A DNA stretch of 42,328 bases, from UHGV virus genome UHGV-0075042; one strand, written 5' to 3'. Shown here in pieces: positions 1,159 to 24,629 of this stretch. A model generated the notes under the pieces. The model was given only the letters and a program-made list of their open reading frames with translations, made no database searches and was not told where the DNA came from. Position numbers and translations under genes: made by a program. The stretch is from a virus. The first letter of the stretch is position 1, and the number at the start of each line of letters is the position of its first letter.

Positions 1159-1307
1159 CCCACCTTAAATACCGAAGAGCACAAAGCCTTGCAATCCAGT
1201 GCAAAGCTTTGCGTACCAGAGTTTTTCCTCATCAACTACCGCAAGTATCGATCGATTGAGACTTGGATGATAGACTTCATGCCTTTCAGAACTCATTGAT
1301 TAAATAA
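1159..1307. other. Candidate intact attP-like spacer between the second integrase and gtrA
   Basis: 149-bp non-coding spacer in the int-attP-gtrABC arrangement of P22-like phages; perfect palindrome GCAAAGCTTTGC at 1201..1212 and a stem-loop spanning the int stop codon (1148..1167). No tRNA-like 3' end recognised. Confidence 0.3.
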
Positions 1308-1670
1308 ATGTTAAATATATTTGCAAGGTACACCTCGATTGGTGTGCTGAACACACTTATACACTGGGTGGTTTTTGGTGTATGTATCTATGCCGCGCAT
1401 ACCAATCAGGCTCTGGCAAACTTCGCAGGTTTCGTTGTGGCTGTGAGTTTTAGCTTCTTCGCGAATGCAAAATTCACATTCAAAGCATCAACTACAACGA
1501 TGCGCTACATGTTATATGTCGGGTTCATGGGAACACTGAGTGCTACTGTTGGATGGGCTGCTGATAGATGCGCACTTCCTCCGATGATAACTCTTGTCAC
1601 CTTCTCCGCCATCAGCCTGGTGTGCGGTTTCGTCTATTCAAAGTTCATTGTCTTTAGGGATGCGAAATGA
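1308..1670 (+). CDS. gtrA: GtrA, bactoprenol-glucose flippase (O-antigen conversion)
   Basis: 120-aa small 4-TM protein, start [24 protein letters not shown] typical of GtrA; first gene of a gtrABC operon. Confidence 0.9.
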
Positions 1671-2581
1671 AAATTTCTTTAGTCGTTCCGGTCTTTAACG
1701 AAGAGGCCACGATACCTATTTTTTATAAAACCGTGCGCGAATTTGAAGGGCTTCAGCAGCATGAAGTCGAGATAGTCTTCATAAACGATGGCAGCAAAGA
1801 CGCTACAGAATCAATTATCAACGAGCTTGCTGTTGCCGACCCGCTTGTGGTTTCGCTGTCGTTCACACGTAACTTCGGCAAAGAACCTGCCCTGTTCGCA
1901 GGTCTGGACCATGCTACCGGGGAGGCAATTATCCCGATTGACGTTGATCTGCAAGACCCTATCGAAGTTATTCCTCACTTGATAGAGAAATGGCAGGCCG
2001 GTGCAGATATGGTTCTGGCTAAACGCTCTGACCGCTCCACTGACAGCAGGCTGAAGCGTAAATCTGCTGAGTGGTTCTATAAACTTCATAACAAAATCAG
2101 CAACCCTCAGATAGAAGAGAATGTTGGCGACTTCCGGCTCATGTCTCGCGAAGTAGTAGAAAACATTAAGCTCATGCCAGAACGAAACCTGTTTATGAAG
2201 GGTGTGCTGAGCTGGGTTGGTGGTCGAACCGATGTCGTAGAATATGCGCGAGCAGAACGCGTTGCAGGAAGCACAAAGTTCAATGGATGGAAGCTATGGA
2301 ACTTGGCGCTGGAAGGGATCACTAGCTTTTCTACTTTCCCTTTGCGCATGTGGACTTATATAGGCCTGTTTGTGGCAACCTTATCATTCCTTTATGGAGC
2401 ATGGATGATTGCTGATAAATTGATGTTTGGAAATAGTGTTCCAGGTTACCCTTCTATCATTGTATCAATATTGTTTCTTGGTGGAGTTCAGTTAATAGGC
2501 ATAGGAGTTCTTGGAGAGTATATAGGAAGAATTTATGTTGAAGTTAAGCAGCGACCAAGATACATTCTAAAGGATAAGTAA
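1667..2581 (+). CDS. gtrB: GtrB, bactoprenol glucosyltransferase (GT2 family)
   Basis: 304 aa; GT2 motifs ([20 protein letters not shown]) and C-terminal TM helices; start overlaps gtrA stop. Confidence 0.9.
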
Positions 2582-2582
2582 A

Positions 2583-4049
2583 ATGACTTTAAATATAAAA
2601 AAAACAGCCATATACATCATTGGATTTATATTCCTGACTTTCTTCTACGCCTCGATTTCAAAACAGATTTTGCCAAGTTCGGATGCTGTTTCTGGACTTC
2701 TTGAGGGTAAGGACATTGCGGACGGAAATTGGACGCTTAGTGGATGGTATCTCTCTACAGTATCATTCTATTTTACAGACATAATATGGTACGGGCTTGC
2801 TTCAAAGGTATTCTGGTACGGACAGTACCAAGCATACTGCATACCGGCAATTATGTATTCAATGGTTACATTGATGACATTTTATCTTTCAAAAGAAAGG
2901 CTTTCATCGTTATGGGCCATTTCATTTTGCGTTGCGCTGCCTTCTGGGTTTGCAGTATTAAACGTATTAATACCTGTGATACATGTCGGCACATATGTAT
3001 CCATGTTGTTTTGCTTCATAATGTTAGACAATTTTTCCAAAACAAGATCGTTAATTTCTCTATCTCTTTATATTTTAGTGTTAGCTCTAGCTTGTTTCAG
3101 TGATGACATCATAAAGCTACTCATTATTGCACCAGTAGCAATATCATCAGTGATTTTTATAGTAAAAACCAAAAGCCAAAAAAATCTGATCATACTAGTT
3201 GCAACTATATTTGCATATGTTGCATCAAAAATTATGACCATGTACGCAAGAGCTCATAACTGGTACATTTTGCCAGGCGTTCCAGATCCAACATTTGTTG
3301 CATTTGATGATATCCTGAATAATTTATACTTATTCGTAAAAGGATTCCTCCTATACAGTGGAGCTTTCTTCTTTGGCAAGCCACCTTCTGATATTACAGC
3401 GCTTATTTCTGTTTTTTGTTTTGTTGTAATGATTTTACTTCTTATATTAGTTGCAATGTCAGTAAAGGAAATATTCTTTACCTCCATGATCAATATGGCT
3501 ATATGTATAGCTTGTATTATAATGATACCAGCATACCTTGCAAGTAACCGTCCAATAGATGAATGGACTATAAGATATATCGTTCCATTTTTTATACTAG
3601 CACCTGTTGTTATTGGCAGATCTAACAACTCCAGAGGGTGGAAATTCATCGCATTAGGGGTTGTTACAACATTTATTCTCTTTTGTTCTATTTATATGCA
3701 TGAAAAAAAAGACAATTCTAATGATATTATAAATCAGATAAAACACACTGTAAGGCAGAATAACCTCACAAACGGGTATGCATCTTTCTGGTTTGCTTCA
3801 TCAGCAAGTATAGATGGAGACATATCAATTGCTCCGATTGATGTAAACCGAGGTTTGAATATACTTGCATGCAATAAATGGTTGTCAAAAAACTATTGGT
3901 ATGAGCGCGGAGGAAATTTCATAATTACAGATGACGAGGTTATGAGAAATATAACAATTAAAGAGATTGGTAATCCATCAAAGGTTATTGACGTCGGAGA
4001 TAAGAAGATTTTTGTTTACGATAAAAACATTACATTCAACTGCAATTAA
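2583..4049 (+). CDS. GtrC-type serotype-specific O-antigen glucosyltransferase (polytopic membrane protein)
   Basis: 488-aa highly hydrophobic multi-TM protein directly after gtrB; markedly AT-rich, as is typical of the type-specific third gene of gtr operons. Confidence 0.7.
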   Translation: MTLNIKKTAIYIIGFIFLTFFYASISKQILPSSDAVSGLLEGKDIADGNWTLSGWYLSTVSFYFTDIIWYGLASKVFWYGQYQAYCIPAIMYSMVTLMTFYLSKERLSSLWAISFCVALPSGFAVLNVLIPVIHVGTYVSMLFCFIMLDNFSKTRSLISLSLYILVLALACFSDDIIKLLIIAPVAISSVIFIVKTKSQKNLIILVATIFAYVASKIMTMYARAHNWYILPGVPDPTFVAFDDILNNLYLFVKGFLLYSGAFFFGKPPSDITALISVFCFVVMILLLILVAMSVKEIFFTSMINMAICIACIIMIPAYLASNRPIDEWTIRYIVPFFILAPVVIGRSNNSRGWKFIALGVVTTFILFCSIYMHEKKDNSNDIINQIKHTVRQNNLTNGYASFWFASSASIDGDISIAPIDVNRGLNILACNKWLSKNYWYERGGNFIITDDEVMRNITIKEIGNPSKVIDVGDKKIFVYDKNITFNCN

Positions 4050-4057
4050 TTAAATAA

Positions 4058-4077
4058 GCGGGTGCTAAGCACCCGCA
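4058..4077. terminator. Bidirectional stem-loop between convergent gtrC and tailspike
   Basis: GCGGGTGC-TAAG-GCACCCGC perfect hairpin in the 31-bp gap between two convergent genes. Confidence 0.6.
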
Positions 4078-4080
4078 TTA

Positions 4081-5844
4081 TCATACACTTGTACCATCCG
4101 CCCTCTTCCATTCAGATGATACTGTGTTATACCATATTGGAAGACCTAGCGTTGTATCATAATACATCTGCCCACTGACTGGTGCTGTAGGGCGCTGCGC
4201 AGTAGATCCACGGTTTTGATAAGTCGTCTGAGTATCATTAACACCTAGACAAGCTATAATACGATTTTTGCGCTCTTCCGATGTATTAAGGTAAATCTTG
4301 GTCGTCATATCGCTATCGAAAGAAACGCCATTGATGGTTATGCCGTTACAGTTATCGGCGGGGTCTGTGATCCCAAGTGGTTGCACGTAGTATCCACCTC
4401 TGATATAAGACGTACCCATAGAGCCGCCAATAACAGATATTTCTTTACAGTTTACCAACGATAGCCCACCAGTCTTATTTCCGTTGAATATATTATTAGA
4501 CAAAGAACATTGTTCAGCATTTTCCAATACCATGCCGAACTCACCACAGTAAGTGATAGTGTTTCCCGTAAATGTTAGATTTCTTGCCCCTTTAATATTA
4601 ATTCCACGACTATTGTTTATCCTCCCTGCACTAATAATGTTACCGCTGATGGTAGCGTAAGCCAGACTCTCCATATCAAAAGCAGTACCGTTGATGGCAT
4701 CAAAAACGCTATTTGAAATTATAACCGGATAACCCGCGAATTGGTCTGTTCCACCCATCTCACCAAGTGTTGTGCGTGTTCTTACCGCAAAATCTCCAGC
4801 AAACATTGAGCATTCACTAATAAATAAATCGGCGGTATCCCATACGTCAATCGGAGAGTTAGAACTGAAACACATAAGAAACTTAGGTGATTCGCTGATG
4901 AACTCCACAGTATTTAAATCCGCACGCCCCAAGAATGGACTACCCCAACGTTCGCACCGGAAGAAGTTAACGTAATGGTAGTTGTTCATAGTAGTTTGTG
5001 CGTTATAGAAAAACACCCGATCAAACTCTAAGTTCTGGACATGACGACAAACAATCCAGTTAATCAGCACGTCGGATGATATGACTACATCTCGGAATAT
5101 GCCACCCTGTTTCCACTGACTAGCAGCCGGGCCAGACCCTGTAAGGGTAAACATAGTGAAGGTTGAATCAGAACCTAGATATTTAATCTCTGGATTTTTT
5201 GCGTTACCAATAATTTCATATTTTGCTGGAAGCTCAATGTCTCTGGTCTTCATTCCATATATGCCAGAACCTTTCAAGTGAATTTTTCTTGCGCCTGAAG
5301 CGAATGCCTTCTGAAAGGCTATGCTATTATCTGTTGTTCCAGAATCATCTTTGCCACCAAAGTCTTCCAAAAATACAAAATCATCCAGCTTTTCTTGTAC
5401 ATTCCTGAAGACAGCACCATCAACAACAGATGGTAATCCATACTTATACTTTACTGTTTCAGGGAATGCCCCGCTTGCAAACTCTCCCTCTAGCTCCTGC
5501 CGGAACTGGTCCGGGTCATACTTGAGAATGTTTGGATAGTAGAACTGCTGTGTGCCATATGCGTCATACACAGCCATTGAATGTCCCTGTACGGTAACGA
5601 ACTTTGCAATCTGTCCGTTATATACCGGATAACCAGCAGCGTTAATGATGATTGGTTGCGAAACAGGAACGTGAGAGCCGTCTTCGTTCTCTACATAAAC
5701 CTGAATCTGGTTTTCAGGATTTACCGGGTCAGTGTCAATTTTACCGATATAAATTTTGCCATTGGCAACGGCTTTAAAAGAACGCGCCATAGTGAAGAGT
5801 TGCGAAGGCATGCTTACCACAACATTGGCTGTAATGTCTGTCAT
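4081..5844 (-). CDS. Tailspike protein (P22-like N-terminal head-binding domain plus distinct beta-helix receptor-binding domain)
   Basis: 587 aa; N-terminal ~110 aa ([13 protein letters not shown]...[21 protein letters not shown]...[13 protein letters not shown]) matches the conserved head-binding domain of P22/Sf6-family tailspikes as recalled; remainder is Gly/Asn/Ser-rich, beta-helix-like. Confidence 0.85.
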
Positions 5845-6008
5845 TTAATTTGCTCCGGACGTAGCAATGCCGAACAAGATGCAACTTGCCCAGCATTGCA
5901 CTAATGTCAGTTATGATTTGTTAATTATGAGATGAGTCTATGCAAAGAGATCTGTTGAATATTGCGCTCTATATATTTGGTTTTTGCACGTTCCTGGTGT
6001 TTGCAAAG

Positions 6009-8006
6009 CTATTCTGACAACGCATCAGACTTAGCACCCTGAGTCATGGCGCTAATTGCCTTTTGTGCCTGCTGCATGGCTTTCTCAAACGCTGTTGATC
6101 CACGTGGGGTGTTTGCCATTCTGAGCATTGCATTTCTGAATGGCTCGCTCTCATAGGCGCGAGTAAGAAGTCCGTAGCTTACTGCTGCGCCAGTTGTCGC
6201 CGGGTTCATTGCCGTACCATACCCAATAATGAACGGGATGGTTTGCTGCCCTGTGGGTGTTGTTACTGCCGCTTTTGCAGCCTGCTGCGTGGATTGCAGG
6301 TAGTTTTTTAATCCTTTCAGATAAGCAGCGTCCTGACCCTTAAATGTGATGCCAGTCTGGTTTTGCAGGATGTTAAGCTGCCGAAGGAACTGGTCAGGGG
6401 ATCCGCCAGATTTCTCCATCGCCTTTCCAATGATGCCATTGCGCATTTGCGCCCTGCCAACACGACCAACTGAGTTATACAGAGTCTTAATTTCCGATTT
6501 GTTCTTGCTGAATAGCATGTTGTTGACAACTTCCGGCGTCAGATCGCCTTTCATGAGAACATTCTTCAGCCTGGTATTCTTTAGTTTCGCCGCTTCGTCA
6601 GCGTAGACGGCATTGGCCTGCTGATATTTCCGGAGAGTATCGTTGCCAAGATTCTGACCAATGACACTATTGATATCGTCGGTCATTGCCTTGTAAACGC
6701 GCTGAATGGCGGCATCGGAACGGTTTGGTAACACTGGTCGCCCCCCCTTCACGTCCATTCTGAACTGGCTGCGCAGATCGCTTAATTGTTTCAAATCCAG
6801 ATTTACCGGACCATCAGGACCAGCATTGCGAACAAGCTCATCACGATATGATTGAAGTTTTGAAATCGTCTCGTTATCAGCAACCTTACCAAGCTTCTGC
6901 AGATTAGATATCTCAGTATCAATCTGCTGAATTGCTCGCGCAGGCTGAATGTTGACTCCCGCCATTGCATTCTGAACCTGCTCAAGACGGTTCCCAGCAG
7001 CACGACGAATTCCTGATGTTTTCGCTTTAAGGCTGTCAATAATAACCGCTGGATCATACTCACCGAATTTATCAGCAAATCTCTGCACCAACTGACTTCT
7101 CGCTTCCTGTTGCGTTGCTCTCATTCCGCTTGTGCCAGCCAGGGGGATATTTTCTGCTGTCGTTTGCGCCATTTTTCCGACGCGGGAAGTAGGCTGTAAG
7201 AGGTCAGTAGTATGAAGAGGCACCCCTTCACGCTCTGCAAATCTGATAGCCTGTTGCGCTTCTGGTGCGATAGCACCACGAACGCCACGATAAGCAGCAC
7301 CTAATCCACGTCCAGCAGCGTTAATAGCGCCTCCAGCCAGAACACCAACGCCTAAATCGGTGGCGAGTGCTTCCGCATCATCTTTCGCACTATTTGCAGC
7401 AAGTGTTCCGACTGCGTTTTCTGCGAGAAGGCGAGTTGCACCCTGAGCAATTCGACCAGCAAGTGTTGGTGCCTGTGTTGCCGCTCTCTCAACGCCAGCA
7501 GGAGTGAGATAAGGCAATGCCTCAGCAAATACCCTGCCCTCTGTCGTTTGTGGAGTCAGCGCGCCTTGCTGAAGACCAAAGTCCTGTTCTAATCCCTGCG
7601 TTGTTACTCGTGGCGCTGGTTGATATGTCCCATCGCCAATGCCGAGTTTACCGCCAGCCCATGCCGCCGCGCTTGTTACAGCATCGGCAATTGATGCAGG
7701 TATGTTTGCCACGTTCACGCCAGCCTGCACCAGTCCGCGACCAGTCTCTTTCACTGCTTCACCAAGGTCAGACATAAATCTACTTTGCTGTGGTTGTTGC
7801 TGTGCTACTGGTTGCTGTGTCTCCACTGGCTGCACAGATGACAATGGATAGGCTGCATAGAAAGCTTGCTTAGCCTGCTCTGCATTTTCTCCGGCTTGCG
7901 GTGCCACGACTTCATTGAAGTATTGCTCCTGAGCCTGCGCTTTTTGTTCTGGTGCTAACGCCTGATACTGTGGAGAGGCGATAACATCTTTCCATGCTTT
8001 AGCCAT
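6009..8006 (-). CDS. Ejection (E) protein, gp16-like (position-based)
   Basis: 665-aa Ala/Gln/Gly-rich protein, last gene before the tailspike in a P22/Sf6-like order; start is 10 bp from the IS1 left end. Confidence 0.65.
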   Translation of the reverse strand: MAKAWKDVIASPQYQALAPEQKAQAQEQYFNEVVAPQAGENAEQAKQAFYAAYPLSSVQPVETQQPVAQQQPQQSRFMSDLGEAVKETGRGLVQAGVNVANIPASIADAVTSAAAWAGGKLGIGDGTYQPAPRVTTQGLEQDFGLQQGALTPQTTEGRVFAEALPYLTPAGVERAATQAPTLAGRIAQGATRLLAENAVGTLAANSAKDDAEALATDLGVGVLAGGAINAAGRGLGAAYRGVRGAIAPEAQQAIRFAEREGVPLHTTDLLQPTSRVGKMAQTTAENIPLAGTSGMRATQQEARSQLVQRFADKFGEYDPAVIIDSLKAKTSGIRRAAGNRLEQVQNAMAGVNIQPARAIQQIDTEISNLQKLGKVADNETISKLQSYRDELVRNAGPDGPVNLDLKQLSDLRSQFRMDVKGGRPVLPNRSDAAIQRVYKAMTDDINSVIGQNLGNDTLRKYQQANAVYADEAAKLKNTRLKNVLMKGDLTPEVVNNMLFSKNKSEIKTLYNSVGRVGRAQMRNGIIGKAMEKSGGSPDQFLRQLNILQNQTGITFKGQDAAYLKGLKNYLQSTQQAAKAAVTTPTGQQTIPFIIGYGTAMNPATTGAAVSYGLLTRAYESEPFRNAMLRMANTPRGSTAFEKAMQQAQKAISAMTQGAKSDALSE

Positions 8007-8070
8007 TAATCACCCGGTGATGCTGCCAACTTACTGATTTAGTGTATGATGGTGTTTTTGAGGTGCTCCA

Positions 8071-8346
8071 GTGGCTTCTGTTTCTATCAGCTGTCCCTCC
8101 TGTTCAGCTACTGACGGGGTGGTGCGTAACGGCAAAAGCACCGCCGGACATCAGCGCTATCTCTGCTCTCACTGCCGTAAAACATGGCAACTGCAGTTCA
8201 CTTACACCGCTTCTCAACCCGGTACGCACCAGAAAATCATTGATATGGCCATGAATGGCGTTGGATGCCGGGCAACAGCCCGCATTATGGGCGTTGGCCT
8301 CAACACGGTTTTACGTCACTTAAAAAACTCAGGCCGCAGTCGGTAA
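8071..8346 (+). CDS. insA: IS1 InsA
   Basis: 91 aa, [43 protein letters not shown] matches IS1 InsA. Confidence 0.9.
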
Positions 8347-8768
8347 CCTCGCGCATACAACCGGGCAGTGACGTCATCGTCTGCGCGGAAATGGACGAAC
8401 AGTGGGGCTATGTCGGGGCTAAATCGCGCCAGCGCTGGCTGTTTTACGCGTATGACAGGCTCCGGAAGACGGTTGTTGCGCACGTATTCGGTGAACGCAC
8501 TATGGCGACGCTGGGGCGTCTTATGAGCCTGCTGTCACCCTTTGACGTGGTGATATGGATGACGGATGGCTGGCCGCTGTATGAATCACGCCTGAAGGGA
8601 AAGCTGCACGTAATCAGCAAGCGATATACGCAGCGAATTGAGCGGCATAACCTGAATCTGAGGCAGCACCTGGCACGGCTGGGACGGAAGTCGCTGTCGT
8701 TCTCAAAATCGGTGGAGCTGCATGACAAAGTCATCGGGCATTATCTGAACATAAAACACTATCAATAA
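8265..8768 (+). CDS. insB: IS1 InsB (transposase made by InsAB' frameshifting)
   Basis: 167-aa frame overlapping insA 3' end, as in IS1; exact functional start depends on the programmed -1 frameshift. Confidence 0.8.
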
Positions 8769-8778
8769 GTTGGAGTCA

Positions 8779-9528
8779 TTACCCAAATGCCGCAGCCCCC
8801 TCTGGATCCGCCTTTAACATTTGCGCGTATTGATTGTAATTCTGCATTGCGGCTGTTGGTGCATATGCTGACGTTAACGCATTTGCTCGGCTAATATCCT
8901 GCCCTCTCGCCTGAAGTGCTTCTCCGGCTTGATTGCTGCGGATCGTCTCTGCCAACTTGCCACGCTCAATATCCCGACCTTCCATTCGATCTTTGATATC
9001 GAAGTACTTCTCATGACCGAGAGAAAACAGTGCCATACTACCAGCAAGCCGCTGGAATCCCTGTGGATCATTAACATGCATTTCGGCAACAGACTCAGGA
9101 GAAATTCCCAAACGACGCATTTCATCTTCGTTATCTGCTATGAATTTTCCAAATGCCCCAGTTCCGAGCGAAGATGCGATTTGAGCACTAGTCGCAAGAT
9201 GACCAATAGAATTTCTCTGGTCGTCATCAATAAAGCCCATCCCTTTCTGAACGCTTTCAAATTCTTCTGGATACTCAGAAATAAGACTGCGCATTTTGTT
9301 TCTGTCTCCAGACTCAAAAGCCCCGGCATATGCTTTCTGAAACTCTGCTTTACGCTGTTGTTGACGTGCCTGCTGATTAATCTCAGCAACGCCTCTTAGC
9401 CCCTGTAGCGCCATTAAACCTACGTTTGGCTGCTGCTGATACTGCACAGGCTGAGGAACGGAAGAACGAGGAGCATTATCATTTTGCGGTGCCATGCTAG
9501 GCAGCCCGCCAAGTTGCCATGTCGCCAT
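8779..9528 (-). pseudogene. Ejection protein gene (gp20-like, position-based) truncated by IS1
   Basis: 249-aa ORF whose stop codon (8779..8781) lies inside the IS1 terminal repeat; the homologous P22 protein is, as recalled, about 470 aa. Confidence 0.6.
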
Positions 9529-10205
9529 TAGAATCCAAGCCCCCCAACAAGACCAATAAGCCCACCACCAATAGCCCCGGCGACATTACCTATACCCGGA
9601 ACAACGGAACCAAGTTGCGCACCCGCTAAAGCGCCTGATGCCGCCCCACCAATACCACGCGCAAGACTGGATGGCTGCTGCGCCTGACCTGCACGAATAG
9701 CGCCAAGCCCCTGCAAGAGTTGTCCGGTATTATTGGCGTAGTTTTGCCCTGCTGTTGCCTGCCCTGATGCCGCATTCATCCCGACATTTAGCAGGTTTCC
9801 ATAATTTTGCATTTGCCCACTGAGCCAATTGTTATAAAGCATGGGCGCAATGGAAGATAACTGGTTACTGGTAGCTGTTGAGCCAAGCCCCCCGGTAGCT
9901 TCTGCTGAGACAAGGTTCTGATAACGGGCCTGATCTGCCTGTGTTTTATATAAACCAGAACCAAAGAAATCATTCGCGGCTTTATTCTGCCCTTCCAGAG
10001 TCATCAGTCCTTGTAGTTGTTGTAAAGCAGGCAATCCGACTTCTGCATACGGCTTGAGATTATTCATCACCGTATTCCACTGCTCGCGCTGCAAATCAAT
10101 TGCCTGCTGCTGGGCCTTCGCCTGAGCTTTAGAGGCACCACCATCACCGCCTTTTTCGTATACGGCACGATTGAGATGTTTATAAGCTATATGGGTAATT
10201 AACAT
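9528..10205 (-). CDS. Ejection protein, gp7-like
   Basis: 225 aa with Gly/Ala-rich C-terminus; position matches P22 gene 7. Confidence 0.65.
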   Translation of the reverse strand: MLITHIAYKHLNRAVYEKGGDGGASKAQAKAQQQAIDLQREQWNTVMNNLKPYAEVGLPALQQLQGLMTLEGQNKAANDFFGSGLYKTQADQARYQNLVSAEATGGLGSTATSNQLSSIAPMLYNNWLSGQMQNYGNLLNVGMNAASGQATAGQNYANNTGQLLQGLGAIRAGQAQQPSSLARGIGGAASGALAGAQLGSVVPGIGNVAGAIGGGLIGLVGGLGF

Positions 10206-10663
10206 TCGCTGAATTCCTTATATTGTTGCCGAGTTAACTGATAAAGCGTTACGCCGACGGGTTTACCACATCTGATATAAGCATCATCAAGATGACCAAC
10301 ACGGGTAGCGCCAAGCAAACGGATAATTGCCCGTCCGTATTTCGTGGTGTCAGGAACCATGGTGATGCTGTTAAGGAATGGTGAGTTTTCGAGAAGCCAT
10401 TTGCAGAATAATCGATGCCCTTGCAGTGCATATTCACCACGGAATCCGGGGTCGTACACCGCATGACATTCCACAACGCTATGCCAGAAGTTACGCACTT
10501 CATGAACGCCAGCCAGCACTAATCCTTCGTAGATGCCGAGGTATACCGCATCAGGCTTGATGTAGTATTTATCTCCACTGTCTACGATATTTCCCGTGTT
10601 TGCCGGGTTGTTGAGGAATTCTGCAAGCTTCACCGGATTATCGATGAGCTTTATTTCCATCAC
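10199..10663 (-). CDS. gp14-like virion/DNA-stabilisation protein (position-based)
   Basis: 154-aa ORF between tail needle and ejection proteins, as in the P22 order 26-14-7-20-16. Confidence 0.55.
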
Positions 10664-11508
10664 TGCTCCGCAATGATTTTGATGGTTGTGGCAGTAAACG
10701 CCGCACCATTAGACTGAATGGTTAACGTGCTGCCATTTGTGGCAAGAAAGCCGTCTTTATCCACGCTGAAGAACGTAGCTAACAAGATGTTATCGGTTGT
10801 TGTCGCCGAGTTGCAACTGCTTACCAGTGTGTCAGGAACAGAGCCGGAAAAGGTTAGCTGCATTGACCTGTTGGCGGTTCCGCTGGGCCACGTCCCGACG
10901 ATCGACAGCTTGAAGAACAAGGTTTTGTTCTCGTTGAACACAACCATCTTGTTGTTAACGGTGTCGAAGAATGGTGCCAACGTGCCGGATGATGGCGTGA
11001 GCGTTTTCAGCAGGCTAACAAGGTTGGTCGGCGCTGTCGGGATGGTTACAGATACACCAGAGTAAACAACCTCTGACTTTTTGCGAGTAGTGGCATACTC
11101 CAGAGCATCGATGCGCGTTTCATGGTCTGAAACCTGCGATTCCAGCGACTGAACTCTGGTATCAAGCGAGGCAATATCGCTTTCATTCTGAGCTATTCGT
11201 GTTTCATGTTCCTGAAGAGTTGATTCTGCCTGGCTGATTCGCTCCTCATGATTAACAAGCGTTGCTTCCGCAGCAGAAATTCGCTGCTCATGGTCAGCGA
11301 GAATCACATCCTGCTCATCGTTCCTGACCTGTGCATCATAAGCGCCCTGACCAGCCTGATTTGCCTTCCCGGCGATTGCACCGACATCAGCTCCCTGATT
11401 TATGACATATAGTAGGTAAGACTGGCTGAATATATTGCGTGGCAAAATTGAAGCATCAAGGCGCGTAGCCTGAACCACAACAGGATCATTCAGTGATGAA
11501 TCAACCAT
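10660..11508 (-). CDS. Tail needle protein (gp26-like) with C-terminal knob
   Basis: 282 aa; N-terminus [61 protein letters not shown] matches the P22 gp26 N-terminus as recalled; coiled-coil heptads then a Ser/Thr-rich C-terminal domain. Confidence 0.8.
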
Positions 11509-12926
11509 TACTCAATCCTTATCTGGCAGCCTGAGAGAGTGACAGGTGACTTAGTGATAACGCGCAATTTGAAGCCGACATTTTTCCTGATGCGTCCGAC
11601 CCGCTTCCACAAAACGCGTTTGTCGTAAACGAACGGTTCATTCTGCTCAATCATCTGCTCACGCCCGTAATTGATGCCGTCAGTGGTTGCAGAGAGAAAA
11701 AGGCGGTCAGCATACTGCGCAACTCCAGTTGACGATTCAACTTCAAGGTCGAAAACTCTGGCGTTATCCGCTTTGAACAACGGAGTAAACAGCAGGTGTT
11801 CCTGCTGCTTGTCGTACTGGCTGCTGATATCGAACTGCAATTTCCCGGTCACGGATTCCAGCTTATCGCCGCACGTTATCTGATTGCCTTCGTAAATGAA
11901 GTCGATAGCGCGGTACACATCGTCATACAAGCCAGTTTTCAACACACACCATTGCGGACCATTGGCGCTTGAAGATGCGTCGTACACGAGAACATGGCGC
12001 GGAAGGTGGATAATCAGCAACTCATGAGCATCAAATCGCAGCGATTCCATCACACCATCAGCCAGTTCATCAGCAGTGTAGGAGCGGAGGATTTTCTCAA
12101 TGCTCGCGCTGGCGATTGGTGACACCTGACCGGAACCGATGATGTACACAGACGGCGCACCTGTTGCCGGATTGCTGATGAACGCATACGAATCAGCAAA
12201 CGGCGTTTTGCAGTAAGTCCCGGCAATGCCTTTCTGCACCATCAGCGATGGCTGTGCGACATACAAAGCAGCACCAACTGTGGTTGCACCAGTCAGGGAG
12301 AAATATTCAATCGTCGATGAGCCAAAGCAGACGATGAAGTCTCGCCATGTTCCGATGCCGATGATGCCGTCAGGCTGTGATTCTGCCCGATATTGTGCGC
12401 TGTAGCGGTCAGGATGCGATTCGTCTTCAAGATCAGTGATAAACCATGAATCAGTACCGTCTTTTGACCACGCATAACGCCCACGTAAGCGAGTAATGTC
12501 ACGAACCGAACCTAATTCATACTGCGTAAATCCGCTGTCTGCAGGCCAGTTTGAGACGGTTTTAACCGTGCCATCATAGCGATACTCGAAAAGTTGACCA
12601 TTAACGCCTACCGCCTGTGATGTCCGACCATGCGCCATTGATACGCGACCACTTCCGGCAACATCACCGACTTCACTTTCTCCTTTGTACAGCTTGCCAC
12701 CACACACGCGATAAACAGCATTCTGCGCCATGTTGTACTCGACGCCTCGAGATACACCGTTCACATCAGAACGTTTTGCAATGCCCGGGAATGAGCGAAG
12801 ATATCCGCTGCTGTTAAGGATTTCTTTGGGTGTAGCCAACATATTTACTGGCAGATAGTCGATATAGTCGGCGTTTCGAAAGTCTTTGCCGACACCTTTC
12901 ATAAGCGGAAGTTGCTGAATCGGCAT
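11508..12926 (-). CDS. Tail accessory factor gp10-like
   Basis: 472 aa, same length and position as P22 gp10. Confidence 0.75.
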
Positions 12927-12935
12927 TTATTCACC

Positions 12936-13397
12936 TCACGTACTCGGATCATCTTTCTCGATGTAAAACCGATTCCACGTAAACGCGCTTTTGTTACCAC
13001 TACCGCGAGGCATGTCATTTCGTCGCTCAAGTGGTGGTATTTTGGTTAAAGCGATACAGATTGTCTGATATGCACTGTCAGCAGCGGTAAGGAGAGCGTC
13101 TGACGGCTGAATGACGTTATCCATGCACACTTGCACAGCGAGTTTCAAAGCGACGCCATCATTTGCCCATGCAGGGATACCTGAATCATCGTCAGGTAAC
13201 GGCATGATGCCGTTTTCTGTATCAGCAAACTGATACCCAAGCTCGATACCTTTAGCCTGCCATGCTGCCATCATGTCTTCGAGGTCATTAATGGCATCTT
13301 CAATTGCCTGAGGGTCAGCATCTGTCAACGTGGCATTGGAATACAGCCCGGCTTTTCGTAAAGCCTTAAGAACGAGATCACCCTTCGTTTTCGCCAT
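12936..13397 (-). CDS. Tail accessory factor gp4-like
   Basis: 153-aa ORF between coat and gp10-like genes. Confidence 0.65.
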   Translation of the reverse strand: MAKTKGDLVLKALRKAGLYSNATLTDADPQAIEDAINDLEDMMAAWQAKGIELGYQFADTENGIMPLPDDDSGIPAWANDGVALKLAVQVCMDNVIQPSDALLTAADSAYQTICIALTKIPPLERRNDMPRGSGNKSAFTWNRFYIEKDDPST

Positions 13398-13566
13398 CTT
13401 CTTCCGCCTTAGCCACTTTTTGCTTCGTTGCGGTTTCTTCAGGAGTTTTTACCCAGCCTTTTTTCAGGTGAGATTTAACTTCTTCGTCATCAACAATGAT
13501 GTAATCGACAGCAAACTGACCACAGGTGATCATGTTGCCAGGCTTATAGAGCATTGTTCGTGCCAT
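13378..13566 (-). CDS. Small hypothetical protein after coat gene
   Basis: 62-aa product from the ATG at 13566, preceded by a GGGAGAAG RBS; the longer 75-aa frame would run through the coat terminator. Confidence 0.4.
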   Translation of the reverse strand: MARTMLYKPGNMITCGQFAVDYIIVDDEEVKSHLKKGWVKTPEETATKQKVAKAEEDGENEG

Positions 13567-13578
13567 TGTCTTCTCCCA

Positions 13579-13600
13579 ATAAAAATGGGGCCGAAGCCCC
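13579..13600 (-). terminator. Intrinsic terminator after coat gene
   Basis: On the - strand GGGGCTTCGGCCCC hairpin followed by ATTTTTATT, directly after the coat stop codon. Confidence 0.55.
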
Positions 13601-13607
13601 ACCAAAA

Positions 13608-14861
13608 TTACTGCCCGGCAATAACGATGCCCGTATATTCAGGAACCAGTACAGAGCAACCGTACAGAGTGGTGAAACGTGCAGTGGTTACGCCTTTGAT
13701 GTGGTCGAAGGCGTAAGACATGATCAGCGTAGCGCCCTGCTCGGTGGTTGCTGTCATTACCTGTGGCCCCTGACCAGTCGGGAATGCCAGTTTGCCGTAC
13801 ATCAGTTCAACAGAACCATCAGCCCAGAACAGGTTAGCCGGTGCGGCATTTTTGTTGAGAATGGTAATTGCTGCACCATTTGCCGCGTTAGCATCAACGT
13901 TTGCATATGGACGGCTGGCGACATCCGCGTTGTCAGGCGGCAAAATTTTCGGGGAGATAGTTACTGTCGTTCCGCTAACTGCCAGAACGCGGAATACCTG
14001 CGGCTGCCCGGTGGTGTCTTTGGTGATCTGGTGTACAGAATTCACCCCTGCAATGGTAAATGCATCGCCAACCTGCAAACCAGATGCAGATACCGTAATG
14101 GTCCCCTGTCGGTTATCCACTGGCATATCGTTGGCGTCTTTCGCTTCAACCTTGTGCGCAGGTTCGGCCGCCAGCGTAATGGAAGTCGCAGTCCCTTTCG
14201 GAACACGACCAGAAATATCGGTCTTGTAGCTATCAAAGGAAGCAATAGGAGGGATCTGCGCTTTTTCGTATGCTGTCAGGGTTGCGCCCTGAGCGTAGGC
14301 ACGGTGACCAAGCTCGCCAGCAAGGTCTTTGTAGTTGAAGGGGTTCCAGAAAGAGCGACGGTTGATACCCTGCGGTACACCAATCGCCGTCATGGTGGCA
14401 TCAATACCTGCCGCACAGTTCCACAAATCACGGCCCTGTGAACCAGTGGTTGAGTCAGCCATTGTGATCACGTTAGTAGCACGCTGCGTGACCATGGAAA
14501 TCAGGTCAGAGTCAATCTGTGCAGCAAGGCGCATACCTGCGGCGCGACCAGCTTCAGTTTTATGTTCCGGGTCACGCATTTCACGCGCATCCAGAGTGTA
14601 CAGAATGTTTTTAGGCTCCTTGAACACAGAAGGAACAAGGCGCTGAACCAGTGCTGTTGGCGTTTTGCTGCTGAGGTCGAGGCCTTCCTCAATGTTCATG
14701 TGGTAATGCTGCGGACGATACAGAACATCACCTGCTCGCTGCATTGCTGTATCACCGGGACGGAATTTTTTAGCGTTACGGGAAACTACGCAGGCGGCCT
14801 CAAAGCCTTCAACGTAGTTTTCGAACATGATTTCAAGGTCTTTTGCTAATTGGTTAGCCAT
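13608..14861 (-). CDS. Major coat (capsid) protein, P22-like
   Basis: 417 aa, follows the scaffold gene; size and position match P22 gp5-type coat. Confidence 0.8.
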   Translation of the reverse strand: MANQLAKDLEIMFENYVEGFEAACVVSRNAKKFRPGDTAMQRAGDVLYRPQHYHMNIEEGLDLSSKTPTALVQRLVPSVFKEPKNILYTLDAREMRDPEHKTEAGRAAGMRLAAQIDSDLISMVTQRATNVITMADSTTGSQGRDLWNCAAGIDATMTAIGVPQGINRRSFWNPFNYKDLAGELGHRAYAQGATLTAYEKAQIPPIASFDSYKTDISGRVPKGTATSITLAAEPAHKVEAKDANDMPVDNRQGTITVSASGLQVGDAFTIAGVNSVHQITKDTTGQPQVFRVLAVSGTTVTISPKILPPDNADVASRPYANVDANAANGAAITILNKNAAPANLFWADGSVELMYGKLAFPTGQGPQVMTATTEQGATLIMSYAFDHIKGVTTARFTTLYGCSVLVPEYTGIVIAGQ

Positions 14862-14879
14862 GCTTAATGCTCCGATAGG

Positions 14880-15773
14880 TTATTTTTTTGCCTTTTTAGC
14901 GGCGAAATACGGCGTCCAGTCACCAGTTTCCAGCGCCTTGGCTTTCAATTTGTCGAGGTTGTTGATTACTGCGCCGTTGCTCCCCTTAACTGTCGGGGTT
15001 GTGGCTGCCGTGGTTTTTGCTTTTGGCATGATTCTGGCCTTCGATTCGATACGTTCCAGCAGACGACCAATTGCTACGGGGTTGGTAGCTTCTGCCAGTT
15101 GCTTGCGCAGTTCAGCGTTGCGACCGAGTGCCAGAACAACGATTTCCGGCTTCTCTGACTCAAACAGGATCGCGTTTTGTGTCTCGATGGGGATTTCCTC
15201 GAGTACGGCCTGTTCTGCTTCCTGATAGCCAGGGACCTTGAGAGCCTTAACACGTTGTTGATATTTGGATAATCGCTCTTGATAGGCAGCATGAAGCTCC
15301 TGTTCCTTCTGCTTGCGAGCCATCTCCTGTTGCTGGTACTTGCCGTTATCCTCTGCCCACTTAGTCATGCGTTGCTGGTAGATTTCTTCATCGAAACCGA
15401 TGTCCTCATCATCCAGTTTTGGCATTCGCGGTGGTTGAGTGATTACCGGCTGCTGCTCGACGGGTTTCTGAGACTGACGCATCAGCTCTTTCAGCTCGCG
15501 GTCCTTCTCTTTAATCGTCTTGCGCAGGTGTTTTACCAGTCCATGCTCTGCGCCATCTTCGCTGGTTGGCGAATCCAGCTTTTCGTCACCAAAGTAGAAT
15601 TCCTGTTCTGATTCGTCGTCATCAGTTTCAGTAGCTTCCTCTGCATCATTTCCGGAGGGCTTACTGCCATCTTCTGTTTCGACTTCTTCAGCCAGTTCGA
15701 CATCATCAGGAATCTGCTCTGATGTATCGGTTTCGATTTCAACTTCTGGTGTGTTTTCTGCCATCTGGTCCAT
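14880..15773 (-). CDS. Scaffolding protein
   Basis: 297 aa; acidic N-terminus, highly charged coiled-coil body and basic C-terminal helix; between portal and coat. Confidence 0.8.
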   Translation of the reverse strand: MDQMAENTPEVEIETDTSEQIPDDVELAEEVETEDGSKPSGNDAEEATETDDDESEQEFYFGDEKLDSPTSEDGAEHGLVKHLRKTIKEKDRELKELMRQSQKPVEQQPVITQPPRMPKLDDEDIGFDEEIYQQRMTKWAEDNGKYQQQEMARKQKEQELHAAYQERLSKYQQRVKALKVPGYQEAEQAVLEEIPIETQNAILFESEKPEIVVLALGRNAELRKQLAEATNPVAIGRLLERIESKARIMPKAKTTAATTPTVKGSNGAVINNLDKLKAKALETGDWTPYFAAKKAKK

Positions 15774-15863
15774 TTGTTACCCCTGTTTACTCGATGTTCA
15801 GCCCATCGGAAGGCAATAGGGTGCCAGGCCTCATAAAGACAGCCATTGCACGTTATGGGTTAA

Positions 15864-18062
15864 TTACTGCTGTGGTTGTTGCTGAGTTGATTTTTGCAGG
15901 ATGCTGCTGATGTCCATGCGCTGCGCATGGCCCTGCGCCTGACTTTTCAGGACAAGCTCTGCATCAGCACGGGCATTATCTCCTTGCTGTTGCTGGAACT
16001 GTCCGAGCAGTTTCAGCGCCTCACGGATATCAGATTTTTGCTGGCTATCGGCAGATGCGAGGATTTTCACAACATTTGCCGCAGCAACCTGAGCATCCGT
16101 CTGTGCCTGGAATGCTTTAACCTGAATGGCTGCTTGTTCGTTCTGCGCTTTCTGCAATTCAGCCTGACCAGCAAGAAGCTGACCTTGCGCTGCAATCATA
16201 GCCGGATCCGGCTGACTGGCCTGTTGTTGTTTCGCCTGCTCAACCATCTGCTGTTCTTCTGGCGTTCTCGGCTTGATAACTCCAGACAGAATCAACTGAT
16301 TGCGGTTGTATTCTTTCAGGTCGTCCATCCCTTCGCCGTCCATATTGTCGAGAATAAGAGACGACACAAGGTCGTGTTTCGGCGTTCCGGGCGGGATAAG
16401 TGCCAGCATGGAAAGTAACGACTTAACCGTTGCATCACGGCGAGTAGCGAACGACTGACCGACATCGACAGTCACTTCATAGTTACCCTGCGAAAGGTCG
16501 TTAAGCGCGATAACCTGCCCTGTCTGACGGTCAACCACTTCACCAGTCATCAGCGCCACGTCATCGCTGCCGTCCTCATTAACGACACGCATCGGCGTAT
16601 CACTGCCATAGACTTCACGAGCCATAGAAAGCCACACGACGCCAGCGCGGCGCATGGATTTAGCCATGTTGTCCATGTAGATATAGGACTGCGTGTCCAT
16701 CCGGTTAAAGATGCTATCAACGGTATCGGTGGCGACGTTGCTCGGCATGTTCTCAAGCTGCGACGCACCTGTAATTTGCTGAATAGCCGTTCCGGTGTAC
16801 TGCAATAGCCCGGCAAGAGCTGGAGGCATTTGTGTCGGAGGCGTATAACTGCTGACCTGAGCCTGCGCAGTAATATCTCCGTTTTTGTTTTTCAGACTGA
16901 CCATCGGCAGGAACGCCGGGCGCTTTTTGTTGCGCTCCGCCCAATGAGTGGCGAGAGGACCAGGAATCATGTCAGCATCAACTACAGGAATGCCATCACC
17001 GCCAGCCTGAGTAGCGTTATCTGCAATCATGGAAACCATCAGGTTCTCAAGACGCTGTGCATCCATCGCTTTTGCTGCGTGGCCTTCGATTCGCTCCTGA
17101 TTATCAACAAATGAACGACGCCCATATACCGGGATGAGAGGAATATGTTCGCCCGGAATACGCTTCGGTTCTTCCAGCCATTCAGCGCCAGACAGAAGAC
17201 CGCAATAAACTCGGCGTTTCTTCACTGTCCGCTCACCAATCAGTTCGAATGCACCATCGGTCAGCTCGTCGACAATATCTTTGATTTGCTCTTCATCATA
17301 GATTGCCGTTTCTCCGCTAACAGGGTTACGCCATGCTGTGAGCTTCACCTTCTCTATGCGAACTTCGTAGTAGCGACCAACATAGATAGCATCAGGAGTT
17401 GACCAGTCATATTGAGTGCCAGTGTCATCACGAGAAAGACTTGCCGCGATGGAATCAGGGTATTCAGCCTCGAACGCTTTAGGCGTCATGGAGAACATTT
17501 CCATAGCCCACATAGCATCAGAGCGGTCATATTGCTTGCTGTCCTGATCGAAGAAGACGCATGTCGCTGGGTCGTAAACCGGGAGAAGGCTTATACGGCG
17601 TTGCTCGTTACTCGGATCCATTTCATCTTCGTAATCGGCACACATGCGGAAACAACCGAATCCGCCCGTTACAGCATCATCAAATGCGTTATCACACGCT
17701 TCGCCACCGGATGTTTCCTGATAGTCAGCGCGGAATTTTCCGTTCATCTTTTCGGCTAACGCTTCCGATGCCTTATCGTCCTTCGGTCTGAATTTAACGC
17801 TGATGCGATTCTGTCGATACTCGCCAATGATGCGATCACATTCACGGGCAATCTTATTCAGTTCAAAACGCGGATAATGCTCAAACCTGCCTTCATCAAA
17901 TGAGTAACCAGCGTTTGTGCTGCCTTCCCACTGTGCGCCGGACACCCGGACGAAACGTTGAGCCTCAATAATCTGCTCACGCATATCCTGCGTTGCTGAC
18001 CAGGCATTATCAAAGTTGCACAGCACCTTGCGATGCCAGTCAGTCATCTTTTTTTCTGCCAT
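15864..18062 (-). CDS. Portal protein (P22 gp1-like, with long C-terminal helical extension)
   Basis: 732 aa; follows large terminase; Gln/Ala-rich C-terminal tail as in P22-family portals. Confidence 0.85.
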   Translation of the reverse strand: MAEKKMTDWHRKVLCNFDNAWSATQDMREQIIEAQRFVRVSGAQWEGSTNAGYSFDEGRFEHYPRFELNKIARECDRIIGEYRQNRISVKFRPKDDKASEALAEKMNGKFRADYQETSGGEACDNAFDDAVTGGFGCFRMCADYEDEMDPSNEQRRISLLPVYDPATCVFFDQDSKQYDRSDAMWAMEMFSMTPKAFEAEYPDSIAASLSRDDTGTQYDWSTPDAIYVGRYYEVRIEKVKLTAWRNPVSGETAIYDEEQIKDIVDELTDGAFELIGERTVKKRRVYCGLLSGAEWLEEPKRIPGEHIPLIPVYGRRSFVDNQERIEGHAAKAMDAQRLENLMVSMIADNATQAGGDGIPVVDADMIPGPLATHWAERNKKRPAFLPMVSLKNKNGDITAQAQVSSYTPPTQMPPALAGLLQYTGTAIQQITGASQLENMPSNVATDTVDSIFNRMDTQSYIYMDNMAKSMRRAGVVWLSMAREVYGSDTPMRVVNEDGSDDVALMTGEVVDRQTGQVIALNDLSQGNYEVTVDVGQSFATRRDATVKSLLSMLALIPPGTPKHDLVSSLILDNMDGEGMDDLKEYNRNQLILSGVIKPRTPEEQQMVEQAKQQQASQPDPAMIAAQGQLLAGQAELQKAQNEQAAIQVKAFQAQTDAQVAAANVVKILASADSQQKSDIREALKLLGQFQQQQGDNARADAELVLKSQAQGHAQRMDISSILQKSTQQQPQQ

Positions 18063-18063
18063 A

Positions 18064-19479: not shown

Positions 19480-20003
19480 TTTCCGAATAGAGTGCTCATC
19501 GGTGATGTTTCTATCTGGATTGCGCCGCCGTCTTTGCCGGTTAGCTCGTGAGAAGATTGTTCTTTAAATGCCTGAACAGAAACATGCTTACCAAGAAGTT
19601 CGAGGTTTTTAACCTTATCAGGCCATTTGATTTTCTTCAGAAGTGCGGCACTATCTGCGGATACCATCTCCACAACATCCATTCCTGATAGCGTTGTGCG
19701 CCATACCTTAGGCCAGTCTTTAATGGGCTTTAACTCACCGTTTTGCAGAAGAATGTCGAGCACATCCATCTGGTCGATTTCAAGAAGGCGATTAAGTACA
19801 TATTCTGCATTAATACCAACAAGATCATTGCGTTGCGCTTTCAGTTCGGCGATTCTTAACTTGATGTCAGGTTTTGACAGGTTTTCGGATGCGGTACGGT
19901 TAGCTGTCTTTGCGCTGTACCCCGCACGAATAGCCGCTTGCGTGGCGTTTAAATCGATGAGGTACTCGTGACAGAACATTTCTTGCTTGTCAGTAAGTGC
20001 CAT
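19476..20003 (-). CDS. Terminase small subunit
   Basis: 175 aa, MALTDKQEMFCHEYLIDLNATQAAIRAGYS is a typical small-terminase N-terminus; stop overlaps the large-subunit start. Confidence 0.8.
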   Translation of the reverse strand: MALTDKQEMFCHEYLIDLNATQAAIRAGYSAKTANRTASENLSKPDIKLRIAELKAQRNDLVGINAEYVLNRLLEIDQMDVLDILLQNGELKPIKDWPKVWRTTLSGMDVVEMVSADSAALLKKIKWPDKVKNLELLGKHVSVQAFKEQSSHELTGKDGGAIQIETSPMSTLFGK

Positions 20004-20024
20004 GTTTTATCTCTGGAGATTTTC

Positions 20025-20270
20025 GTGAGAAAATTAATCGTATTTGTATCTTTTTGTTCGGCTTTAGGCTTTGGCTATCAAGCCATAACCAGTCAAACAT
20101 TATCCACAGCGCTAGCAGCATTAGCGAGTTTGGTCGTTTTTCTAACAGCCTTAGCAAATCTAAAAAGCAACAAAGCTAAAGAGCAAGGTGTTAGCCAAAC
20201 AATCGGCGATAACTCTAGCGGTATACAAATTGGTGGCAACATAACTATTAATGAAAGGGACAAAGAATGA
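20025..20270 (+). CDS. Small membrane protein, first gene of opposite-strand moron cassette
   Basis: GTG start at 20025 with GGAG 8 nt upstream; two hydrophobic helices; C-terminus QTIGDNSSGIQIGGNITINERDKE; stop overlaps next start (ATGA). Confidence 0.5.
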   Translation: MRKLIVFVSFCSALGFGYQAITSQTLSTALAALASLVVFLTALANLKSNKAKEQGVSQTIGDNSSGIQIGGNITINERDKE

Positions 20271-21790: not shown

Positions 21791-21856
21791 GTTTTAGGCG
21801 CATCGTTAGGTGCGCCATTGTCCAAGCACCTCAGTGAAGAGTTTCTGTAATGTCAA

Positions 21857-23192: not shown

Positions 23193-23280
23193 GACATCAA
23201 CACCCCAACGGCCAGAAACCACGGCCACGCATCGTTGCCATTCAATGCGAGCAACGCTGCCATGAAAAAGCAAATCATGC

Positions 23281-24587: not shown

Positions 24588-24629
24588 TATCATGCCGTTA
24601 ATATGTTGCCATCCGTGGCAATCATGCTG

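Follow-up and report, generated by a model that had tools for sequence, protein, structure and literature searches.

We find that the P22-like prophage in the 42,328-nucleotide stretch of viral DNA analysed here (UHGV virus genome UHGV-0075042, hereafter the window) contains a complete IS1 at the end of a gp20-type ejection-protein gene that is reduced to 249 codons. The best explanation, which we consider probable, is that an IS1-adjacent deletion shortened the gene in a chromosomal island, and that the damaged allele subsequently entered the prophage by homologous recombination, with the consequence that its virions would be non-infectious. The features around the lesion are, in window coordinates:

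8016..8783, plus strand: complete IS1, IS1A-like (768 bp), with exact ends and intact ORFs
8016..8038: left terminal repeat of IS1 (IRL), GGTGATGCTGCCAACTTACTGAT, exact match, single occurrence in the window
8761..8783: right terminal repeat of IS1 (IRR), exact match, single occurrence in the window
8071..8346: insA ORF, 91 aa, open
8265..8768: insB frame, 167 aa, open
8320..8328: A6C frameshift motif TTAAAAAAC, intact
8007..8015: the surviving copy of the 9-bp sequence that IS1 originally targeted, TAATCACCC, equal to the last codons and stop of gp20 and overlapping the start of gp16 (GGGTGATTAATG on the minus strand)
8783..8784: deletion endpoint, right of IRR, where 667 bp of gp20 and the second target copy are gone
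8779..9528, minus strand: truncated gp20-type ejection-protein gene, 249 codons (PF16928, Inj_translocase)
6009..8006, minus strand: gp16-type ejection-protein gene, 665 aa, intact, of ST3/Sf6 prophage type (PF26808)
4081..5844, minus strand: tailspike gene
9528..10205, minus strand: gp7-type ejection-protein gene, 225 aa, intact, of island type (PF25688)
10199..10660, minus strand: DUF2824 gene in the gp14 position, 153 aa (PF11039), hybrid according to the SNP map

The IS1 element and the shortened gp20 gene

The element at 8016..8783 is an IS1 by its length, its ends and its ORFs. It has the ~768 bp of the family, the ~23-bp imperfect terminal inverted repeats (GGTGATGCTGCC.../GGTAATGACTCC...) and the insA and insB' ORFs with the A6C -1 frameshift site, and the chance expectation for its exact end matches in the window is 0. 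It is the only IS1 copy in the window and is 99.6-99.7% identical to copies annotated as IS1A family in E. coli genomes, and no 100% match to it was found among ~75,000 IS1 places in 5,426 complete E. coli genomes. It departs from the canonical or island IS1 at 8308, 8360 and 8588, so that every island IS1 seen has three mismatches to its interior, while the flanks are 100% identical; this mismatch calls for an extra event, for example IS1-IS1 gene conversion, or for an effect of the assembly.

The feature of the family that is missing is the direct target duplication of 9 bp (rarely 8-14 bp) that a simple insertion leaves. The flanking 9-mers, TAATCACCC on the left (8007..8015) and CAAATGCCG on the right (8784..8792), match at four of nine positions, and no direct repeat of 5 bp or more was found within 30 bp of the IS1 ends when duplication lengths of 7 to 14 bp were tried. 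The absent duplication is no argument against the identity of the element, because a later loss explains it and the ancestral TAATCACCC duplication is recoverable in SCU-172, as described below. Adjacent deletion and recombination between IS copies are the usual causes of a missing target-site duplication (PMC11708052).

The gp20-type reading frame runs into the IS1 and ends there, codon 249 and the TAA stop being made of the IS1 bases 8783..8779. Its product consists of residues 1-248 of a 473-aa protein followed by a glycine and the TAA from the IRR; in a comparison with the ejection protein of E. coli 042, which has 473 aa, 247 of these 248 N-terminal residues agree. The PF16928 profile, which the identical 249-aa product matches, and the place between a gp7-type (PF25688) and a gp16-type (PF26808) gene assign it to the family of P22 gp20 and Sf6 gp12. 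A full-length member has about 430-476 aa and a stop that overlaps the gp16 ATG, as opposed to the 249 codons found here. Intact homologues are 431-476 aa long (Sf6 431, ST3 433, P22 471, related P22-like prophages 446-476), and none of the intact relatives among ST3, the related prophages, Sf6 and P22 has a gene of ~250 aa at the gp20 position.

Measured against the intact 473-aa gene, 667 bp or 225 codons of gp20 are missing. Window position 8784 corresponds to position 6001 of the 042 locus (L002) and the 9 bp left of IS1 to 5325..5333, with 5334..6000 absent. The ATG (8006) of the 665-aa gene is separated from IS1 by exactly 9 bp, GGGTGATTA on the minus strand, and in-silico removal of IS1 leaves the gp20 ORF out of frame with the TAA that overlaps this ATG. 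A megablast search of 8784..9528 against cultured phages gave zero matches, and at the protein level the gp20-type product was at most 47% identical to any cultured phage protein. In view of this weak similarity P22, Sf6 and HK620 were unusable as a direct gauge of the loss, and 042 and ST3 served instead. When the intact 473-aa protein was compared by sequence with the Protein Data Bank, no match came up. The exact 249-aa protein, including its IS1-derived end, occurs on 86 contigs and is in NCBI as ELF22115.1, present since the KTE strains; among the matches listed, all of its contexts except the window's own contig are the island described in the next section.

These results agree with what the first-pass annotation had described at this site, namely an IS1 with canonical ends, flanking 9-mers that differ (with no overlooked 8-9-bp duplication at the borders), an ejection-protein frame ending in the IS1 terminal repeat, and 9 bp with a stop overlapping the next ATG. 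It had also held an IS1-associated adjacent deletion or inter-IS recombination responsible, a reading supported by the 667 bp lost relative to the 473-aa gene and by the ancestral duplication in SCU-172.

The probable donor island and the origin of the allele

The DNA to the right of IS1 matches an island, a ~19-kb P4-like integrative element that carries a P22-type ejection cassette. Its genes are those for an integrase, AlpA, AntA, Ash and a TOPRIM-DUF927 primase, followed by DUF2824-gp7-gp20-gp16(701 aa)...PerC, and it is located at thrW/proA in SCU-172, MSB1_4I and AF3 and at yicC in 042, 2014C-3338 and HCP5S3_I2. Over 8784..10567 the window is 99.7% identical to the island, with 100% identity over 8784..10306, and from 7845 to 10567 it is colinear with the island L008 without a gap. 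The gp7-type gene of the window has 100% nucleotide identity to that of the SCU-172 island and 54% protein identity to the gp7 of ST3.

The intact gp20/gp16 junction contains ...CATTAATCACCCCATAGTG... in the 042 island, and ...GCCATTAATCACCCCATAGTG... was read in both 042 and ST3. In SCU-172, TAATCACCC is found at the IRL of one IS1, where it adjoins gp16, and at the IRR of a second, inverted IS1, where it adjoins an essentially full-length gp20, and the remaining two IS1 flanks are both CGTTTATTC. The pairs of TAATCACCC and CGTTTATTC across the two elements indicate a normal insertion with a 9-bp duplication that was later split by an IS1-IS1 inversion. AF3 has the same IRL junction, and its IRR adjoins island DNA 10.7 kb away, corresponding to a 10.7-kb deletion. 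Both junctions of the window, that is TAATCACCC-IS1-CAAATGCCG, are present in the islands L008 and L023, and the islands L009 and L011 keep the IRR junction of the window with further inversions. The perfect 9-bp duplication GACGCGCCG at a simple IS1 insertion in L009 serves as a control. The IRL junction is thus identical in the window, SCU-172, AF3, L008 and L023, and the IRR junction has shifted by 667 bp and a further 9 bp. One junction is ancestral and the other displaced, DNA and one copy of the duplication are lost and the IS is intact, as in an IS-adjacent deletion.

This comparison shows that IS1 entered the island exactly between gp20 and gp16, duplicating TAATCACCC. The insertion was coding-neutral, since the duplicated ...GATTA forms a TAG stop for gp20 with the first G of IS1, and gp16 retains 9 bases upstream of its start. 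The IRR end of the island IS1 then yielded rearrangements, as in intramolecular IS1 transposition, and in one outcome a 667-bp adjacent deletion took the second target copy and the 225 C-terminal codons of gp20, leaving the IRL junction untouched. By comparison of the island variants, the insertion and the IRR-side deletion both took place in the island. The deletion endpoint at 8784 is arbitrary and yet the same in island and window, which points to a single origin of the allele, and as both IS1 junctions pre-exist in the island, the deletion would not have been made in this prophage, the allele having been imported by recombination.

The 667 bp could also have been lost by RecA recombination with a second IS1 in the same orientation at 8784, instead of by a transposase-driven deletion, and both routes would give the identical end product. 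We regard the RecA route as possible, if somewhat unlikely. The island lineages are rich in IS1, with at least 40 IS1 pieces in some genomes, and recombination between IS copies is often behind a missing duplication (PMC11708052), but no genome was found with CAAATGCCG on both sides of IS1 or with two IS1 667 bp apart in gp20. The same IS1 has furthermore undergone several other rearrangements on its IRR side, which fits an active end and the transposase-driven deletion that we favor.

The putatively exchanged segment and its source contig

Apart from the region of the lesion, the window matches the intact prophage between ybhB and ybhC of E. coli ST3. The identity is 99.87% over 1178..8015 and 99.90% over 10215..42328, with no alignment between, and 58 of the 61 ST3 reference proteins, among them the flanking ybhC, have full-length counterparts of 99-100% identity. 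The int/xis, immunity, replication, nin, lysis, terminase and portal genes are colinear with those of P22-like (Sf6-like) prophages, and so is the structural part with scaffold, coat, gp4, gp10, needle, gp14, E-proteins, tailspike and gtrABC; needle, gp10 and gp4 lie further along in the same minus-strand series as the genes listed above. The sole incomplete gene is gp20. Judged by this gene content, the host element is an Sf6/P22-like podovirus prophage that is intact apart from gp20. Its gp16-type gene is 99.85-100% identical to ST3 and to sister contigs and has 94% nucleotide identity to gene 13 of Sf6, and the ST3 prophage's own gp20 (433 aa) and gp7 have 45% and 54% protein identity, respectively, to the versions in the window. 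The segment of other origin, and the intervals in which it would have been exchanged, are:

7903..8015: candidate left exchange interval, 113 bp over which prophage type and island type do not differ
8016..10306: putative imported patch comprising IS1, the shortened gp20 gene, gp7 and the DUF2824 3' end, replacing ~2.0 kb of the prophage's own gp20-gp7 region
10307..10363: candidate right exchange interval, 57 bp of identity

On the left side there are seven differences between island and window at 7854..7902, the last at 7902, and at all of them the window is of ST3 type. On the right side the 24 differences between ST3 and window end at 10306, and five differences between island and window begin at 10364, from where the window is again of ST3 type. 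This SNP map, with island type from IS1 to 10306 and ST3 type up to 7902 and from 10364 onwards, places the exchanges within 7903..8015 and 10307..10363. According to the same map the DUF2824 gene is a hybrid with a 5' part of ST3 type and a 3' part of island type. The hybrid DUF2824 protein was tried as a marker of the recombinant and rejected, as 67 blocks of genuine P22-like prophages contain the 153-aa version, which is thus not discriminating, and no record of a 154-aa version with a GTG start was found. A 75-nt signature across 10306 and 10364 was specific among the loci compared; in IMG/VR and the metagenome collection it also matched unrelated P22-like prophages of 92-95%, and the hybrid was not independently confirmed in this way.

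The SNP patterns suggest that the allele, together with ~1.5 kb of island DNA on its right, replaced the gp20-gp7 segment of the Sf6/P22-like prophage at ybhC by two homologous exchanges in the 113-bp and 57-bp stretches of identity. Gene conversion, a reciprocal swap with a co-resident island, or replacement by incoming DNA could each account for such a double exchange.

The window sequence is apparently taken from a metagenome contig built from short reads. The hybrid is known from one record only, ENA ERZ1741956 NODE_6, a 51.5-kb metagenome contig that contains the window at 100% identity, and neither 5,426 complete E. coli genomes nor IMG/VR have the arrangement. The exact gp16 variant of the window is otherwise found only on about a dozen gut-metagenome contigs and in an nr entry named 'MAG TPA Caudoviricetes sp.'. 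None of the 12 other contigs with this variant has the patch or the IS1; at least four have an intact 433-aa gene of ST3 type, seven were grouped with one of these, and one (L026) has the gene in pieces.

These circumstances raise the question of an assembly chimera, in which an intact ST3-type prophage and a separate island would have been joined by a de Bruijn path (largest k ~55) that switched twice. The sole hybrid record is a SPAdes-style metagenome contig, nr has the gp16 of the window only under the 'MAG TPA' name, the two switch intervals of 57 and 113 bp are both at least 55 bp long, and contigs of the same lineage from other assemblers lack the patch, at least four of them showing the intact 433-aa gene. 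In addition, the interior combination of the IS1 is unmatched in complete genomes, as for a collapsed repeat, and the same contig has a second switch inside the ~800-bp gtrA/gtrB repeat. On the other hand, a chimera would take two coordinated mis-joins, and the node at one of them is 57 bp long, short enough for any single 100-bp read to cover it. The contig also crossed the 768-bp IS1, where assemblers normally stop if the element is present in several copies. Moreover, the independent assemblies L027 and L028 reproduce its intS-gtr join, so that the contig is not generally unreliable. On balance we think a chimera unlikely.

Highly improbable in our judgment is an origin in situ, whereby a prophage with a native island-type module would have acquired the IS1 and the 667-bp deletion itself, the allele then having been exported or having arisen twice. 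P22-like prophages with this module do exist, in which gp20 is intact (446-476 aa) and the DUF2824 protein is the same, and the target resembles an IS1 end (an ATCACC/C/GGTGAT palindrome at the junction), making it a possible insertion hot spot. The arbitrary endpoint at 8784, identical in island and window, makes an independent origin implausible, and on the same ground we rejected the idea that independent insertion of IS1 into a hot spot explains everything. Both the state before the deletion (SCU-172) and a different outcome (AF3) are found in the island, the allele is on 86 contigs and all of its contexts listed, other than the window's own contig, are islands, against one prophage contig, and prophage contigs of the same lineage have the ST3-type module, not the island type. 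That the 249-codon ORF is a natural short gene, beside which IS1 made a simple insertion whose duplication mutated away, has the open reading frame itself in its favor and nothing else, and we consider it virtually refuted by the match at 247 of 248 residues to the N-terminal part of a 473-aa protein, the frame to the TAA at the gp16 ATG that taking out IS1 does not restore, the final codon and stop made of IS1 bases, and relatives that are all 431-476 aa long.

Import of the allele from the island, the reading that we favor, revises the first-pass annotation in three respects. It had placed the event in this prophage, which does not fit with junctions that pre-exist in the islands L008 and L023; it had taken the right flank for the prophage's own gene, where 8784..10306 is identical to the island and the ST3-type prophage extends up to 8015; and it had treated the 9 bp left of IS1 as the remnant of a bigger loss on the left side, where they are the retained original target copy.

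Predicted consequences for the prophage and relation to known systems

With IS1 polarity on downstream genes in mind, we point out that the element now stands between the gp16-type gene and the rest of the late operon. To reach the gp16 and tailspike genes, late transcription would now have to pass through IS1 in antisense, and the translational coupling of gp16 to gp20 would be lost. In addition, gp20 has lost its C-terminal 48% and gp7 has been swapped for a 54%-identical allele. P22 virions assemble without gp7, gp16 and gp20, but these proteins are absolutely required for delivery of the DNA, and the particles of E-protein deletion mutants are morphologically normal (PMC4992974). By analogy, the window prophage, with its other genes kept and the N-terminal half of gp20 only, should still excise, replicate, lyse and package; its particles would assemble and package DNA and then fail in delivery, and virions without a working gp20 should be non-infectious. 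The proposal of the first-pass annotation that the prophage is defective is therefore reasonable as far as the essential role of the P22 E-proteins in DNA delivery goes (PMC4992974), but it also hinges on a correct assembly, given the metagenome source of the contig and the sister contigs with an intact gene. The lesion itself is mutational and no functional system, and apart from the imported allele it is ordinary prophage decay.

The rearrangements resemble IS-mediated deletions, which are classical for IS1 and have been described for IS150 in the LTEE (PMC11708052), in that one junction is conserved and the other moved, the IS is intact and the duplication lost, the ancestral insertion with its duplication can be identified, and one IS copy leads to more than one outcome, here deletions of 0.67 kb and 10.7 kb as well as inversions. 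Unlike in those systems, the product would later have moved to another locus by homologous recombination; the mechanism is otherwise not new. The lesion also resembles mutants of P22 gene 20 and Sf6 gene 12 (P22 Delta20; PMC4992974) in its position between gp7 and gp16 and in the normal-looking, non-delivering particles that we would expect. In contrast to P22 Delta20 it is a C-terminal truncation that keeps 248 of 473 residues and not a null, in a protein less than 47% identical to those of cultured phages. With Sf6 and the ST3 prophage (ybhB/ybhC) the window shares the gene order gtrABC-tailspike-gp16-gp20-gp7-gp14-needle-gp10-gp4-coat, a gp16 region 94% identical to Sf6 and 99.9% identity to ST3 outside the patch, whereas the ejection module of another type at 8784..10306 and the IS1 set it apart from both. 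A further parallel is the pool of defective prophages in O157, for which Asadulghani et al. reportedly described in 2009 recombination among resident prophages and remnants. As in that pool, homologous modules would have been exchanged between co-resident phage-derived elements, but here, in place of a rescue, an intact prophage would have received a defect from a remnant or island. IS-adjacent deletion, inactivation of prophage genes and mosaic recombination are all already known, and the truncated protein is already in databases.

The most interesting by-product of the analysis is the island family, which carries a P22-type ejection cassette in intact form and is found at two sites in the chromosome. 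The family lacks psu, sid and delta and has the cassette in the order DUF2824-gp7-gp20-gp16-SieA-like...PerC; it occupies at least two attachment sites (thrW and yicC) with differing integrases, and many strains have the cassette intact. A literature search on satellites carrying ejection proteins found nothing relevant, and the island family was not found described. It is conceivable, although we hold it to be quite doubtful, that the donor represents an undescribed family of P4-like satellite-type islands that deliberately carry a P22-type ejection cassette and swap it with helper prophages. If true, the islands could supply ejection proteins to, or swap them with, resident P22-like helpers, and the window would be a captured cassette exchange from island to helper.

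Calls of prophage completeness and of an IS without duplication that are made on metagenome contigs need confirmation at the level of reads. If the sequence is real, a single IS1 copy has given rise to a series of rearrangements in related strains, comprising the insertion, the deletions of 0.67 kb and 10.7 kb and the inversions, and a defect from one phage-derived element would have been copied into an otherwise perfect prophage via very short stretches of identity.

An island family carrying a P22-type ejection cassette

The part of the window at 8784..10567, which adjoins the IS1 copy, is common to a family of integrative islands:

ca. 19 kb, integrative island family, loci L002 (E. coli 042), L003 (SCU-172), L024, L025 and L008–L012

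The first part of the island encodes int, AlpA, AntA, DUF4222, Ash and a TOPRIM-DUF927 primase. The primase is followed by an ejection cassette of P22 type, consisting of DUF2824, gp7, gp20 (473 aa) and gp16 (701 aa), after which come a SieA-like gene and PerC. The island loci lack capsid and tail genes as well as psu, sid and delta. Islands at thrW/proA and islands at yicC differ in their integrases, and many strains have an intact ejection cassette. Of 5,426 genomes, 186 contain a match to 8784..10205 that spans 80% or more of this stretch. We did not find a description of an island family with an ejection cassette in the literature that we searched.

The original IS1 insertion and later changes

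In the island, the target duplication together with the first base of IS1 restores a TAG stop codon for gp20 (window 8004..8021; 14618..14630 in the SCU-172 locus, L003), and gp16 retains its 9 upstream bases. As the stop codon is regenerated and the upstream bases are kept, the original IS1 insertion is coding-neutral. The target ATCACC, a single C and the IS1 end GGTGAT form a 13-bp palindrome, so that the target is similar to the IS1 terminus, and this likeness may be the reason why IS1 landed at this site. The gp20 gene of SCU-172 is full-length except that, close to its 3′-end, one copy of a 7-bp tandem repeat, CTGGCTG, is missing (L003 14590..14626 compared with L002 5334..5380), which explains its annotation as frameshifted. 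This loss seems to be a separate, second inactivation that came after the IS1 insertion.

The IS1 copy in the window differs both from canonical IS1A and from the IS1 of all island copies at three positions:

8308, IS1 nt 293
8360, IS1 nt 345
8588, IS1 nt 573

One of these changes alters InsA (Ile to Val), while the other two are silent in the transposase. None of 5,426 complete E. coli genomes contained a 100% match to this IS1, the best match being 99.7%. The three differences may stem from gene conversion or from the collapse of a repeat, or the copy may be a rare variant.

The left end of the window and related contigs

The first gene of the window is intS of a CPS-53-like element at argW, where the reference prophage of strain ST3 has ybhB. 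The window is of CPS-53 type up to 1963 and of ST3-prophage type from 2103, and the exchange therefore falls within 1964..2102, inside gtrB, an interval that is part of a near-identical gtrA/gtrB repeat of about 800 bp. This switch implies either that the chromosome between argW and bio was inverted, more or less symmetrically around the terminus, or that the join is repeat-driven. Two independent metagenome contigs (L027 and L028) contain the identical intS-gtr join, whereas the sister metagenome contig L026 (JGI 3300039330) has the ybhB arrangement. In L026 the ST3-type gp20 is split into two fragments of 159 and 126 aa and the tailspike is shortened to 569 aa, both of which probably reflect errors of assembly or sequencing, or else strain variation.

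Relatives of the cassette and spread of its gp20 type

Three P22-like prophages (L017, L020 and L021) have a full set of head and ejection genes, including the 701-aa gp16. In L017 and L020, the 6–8 kb shown downstream of gp16 contain a SieA-like gene, Abi_2 and PerC but no tailspike gene; L021 ends at gp16. As this right end is also that of the island, the P22-like prophages suggest how the cassette of the island arose.

The gp20 type found at 8782..9528, 473 aa when intact, is present on at least 999 contigs, and its nearest phage relatives are APSE phages and Sf6-like coliphages. Since none of the proteins encoded by 50,697 deposited phage genomes is more than 47% identical to it, it is a very common prophage ejection-protein type without a cultured representative among those genomes.
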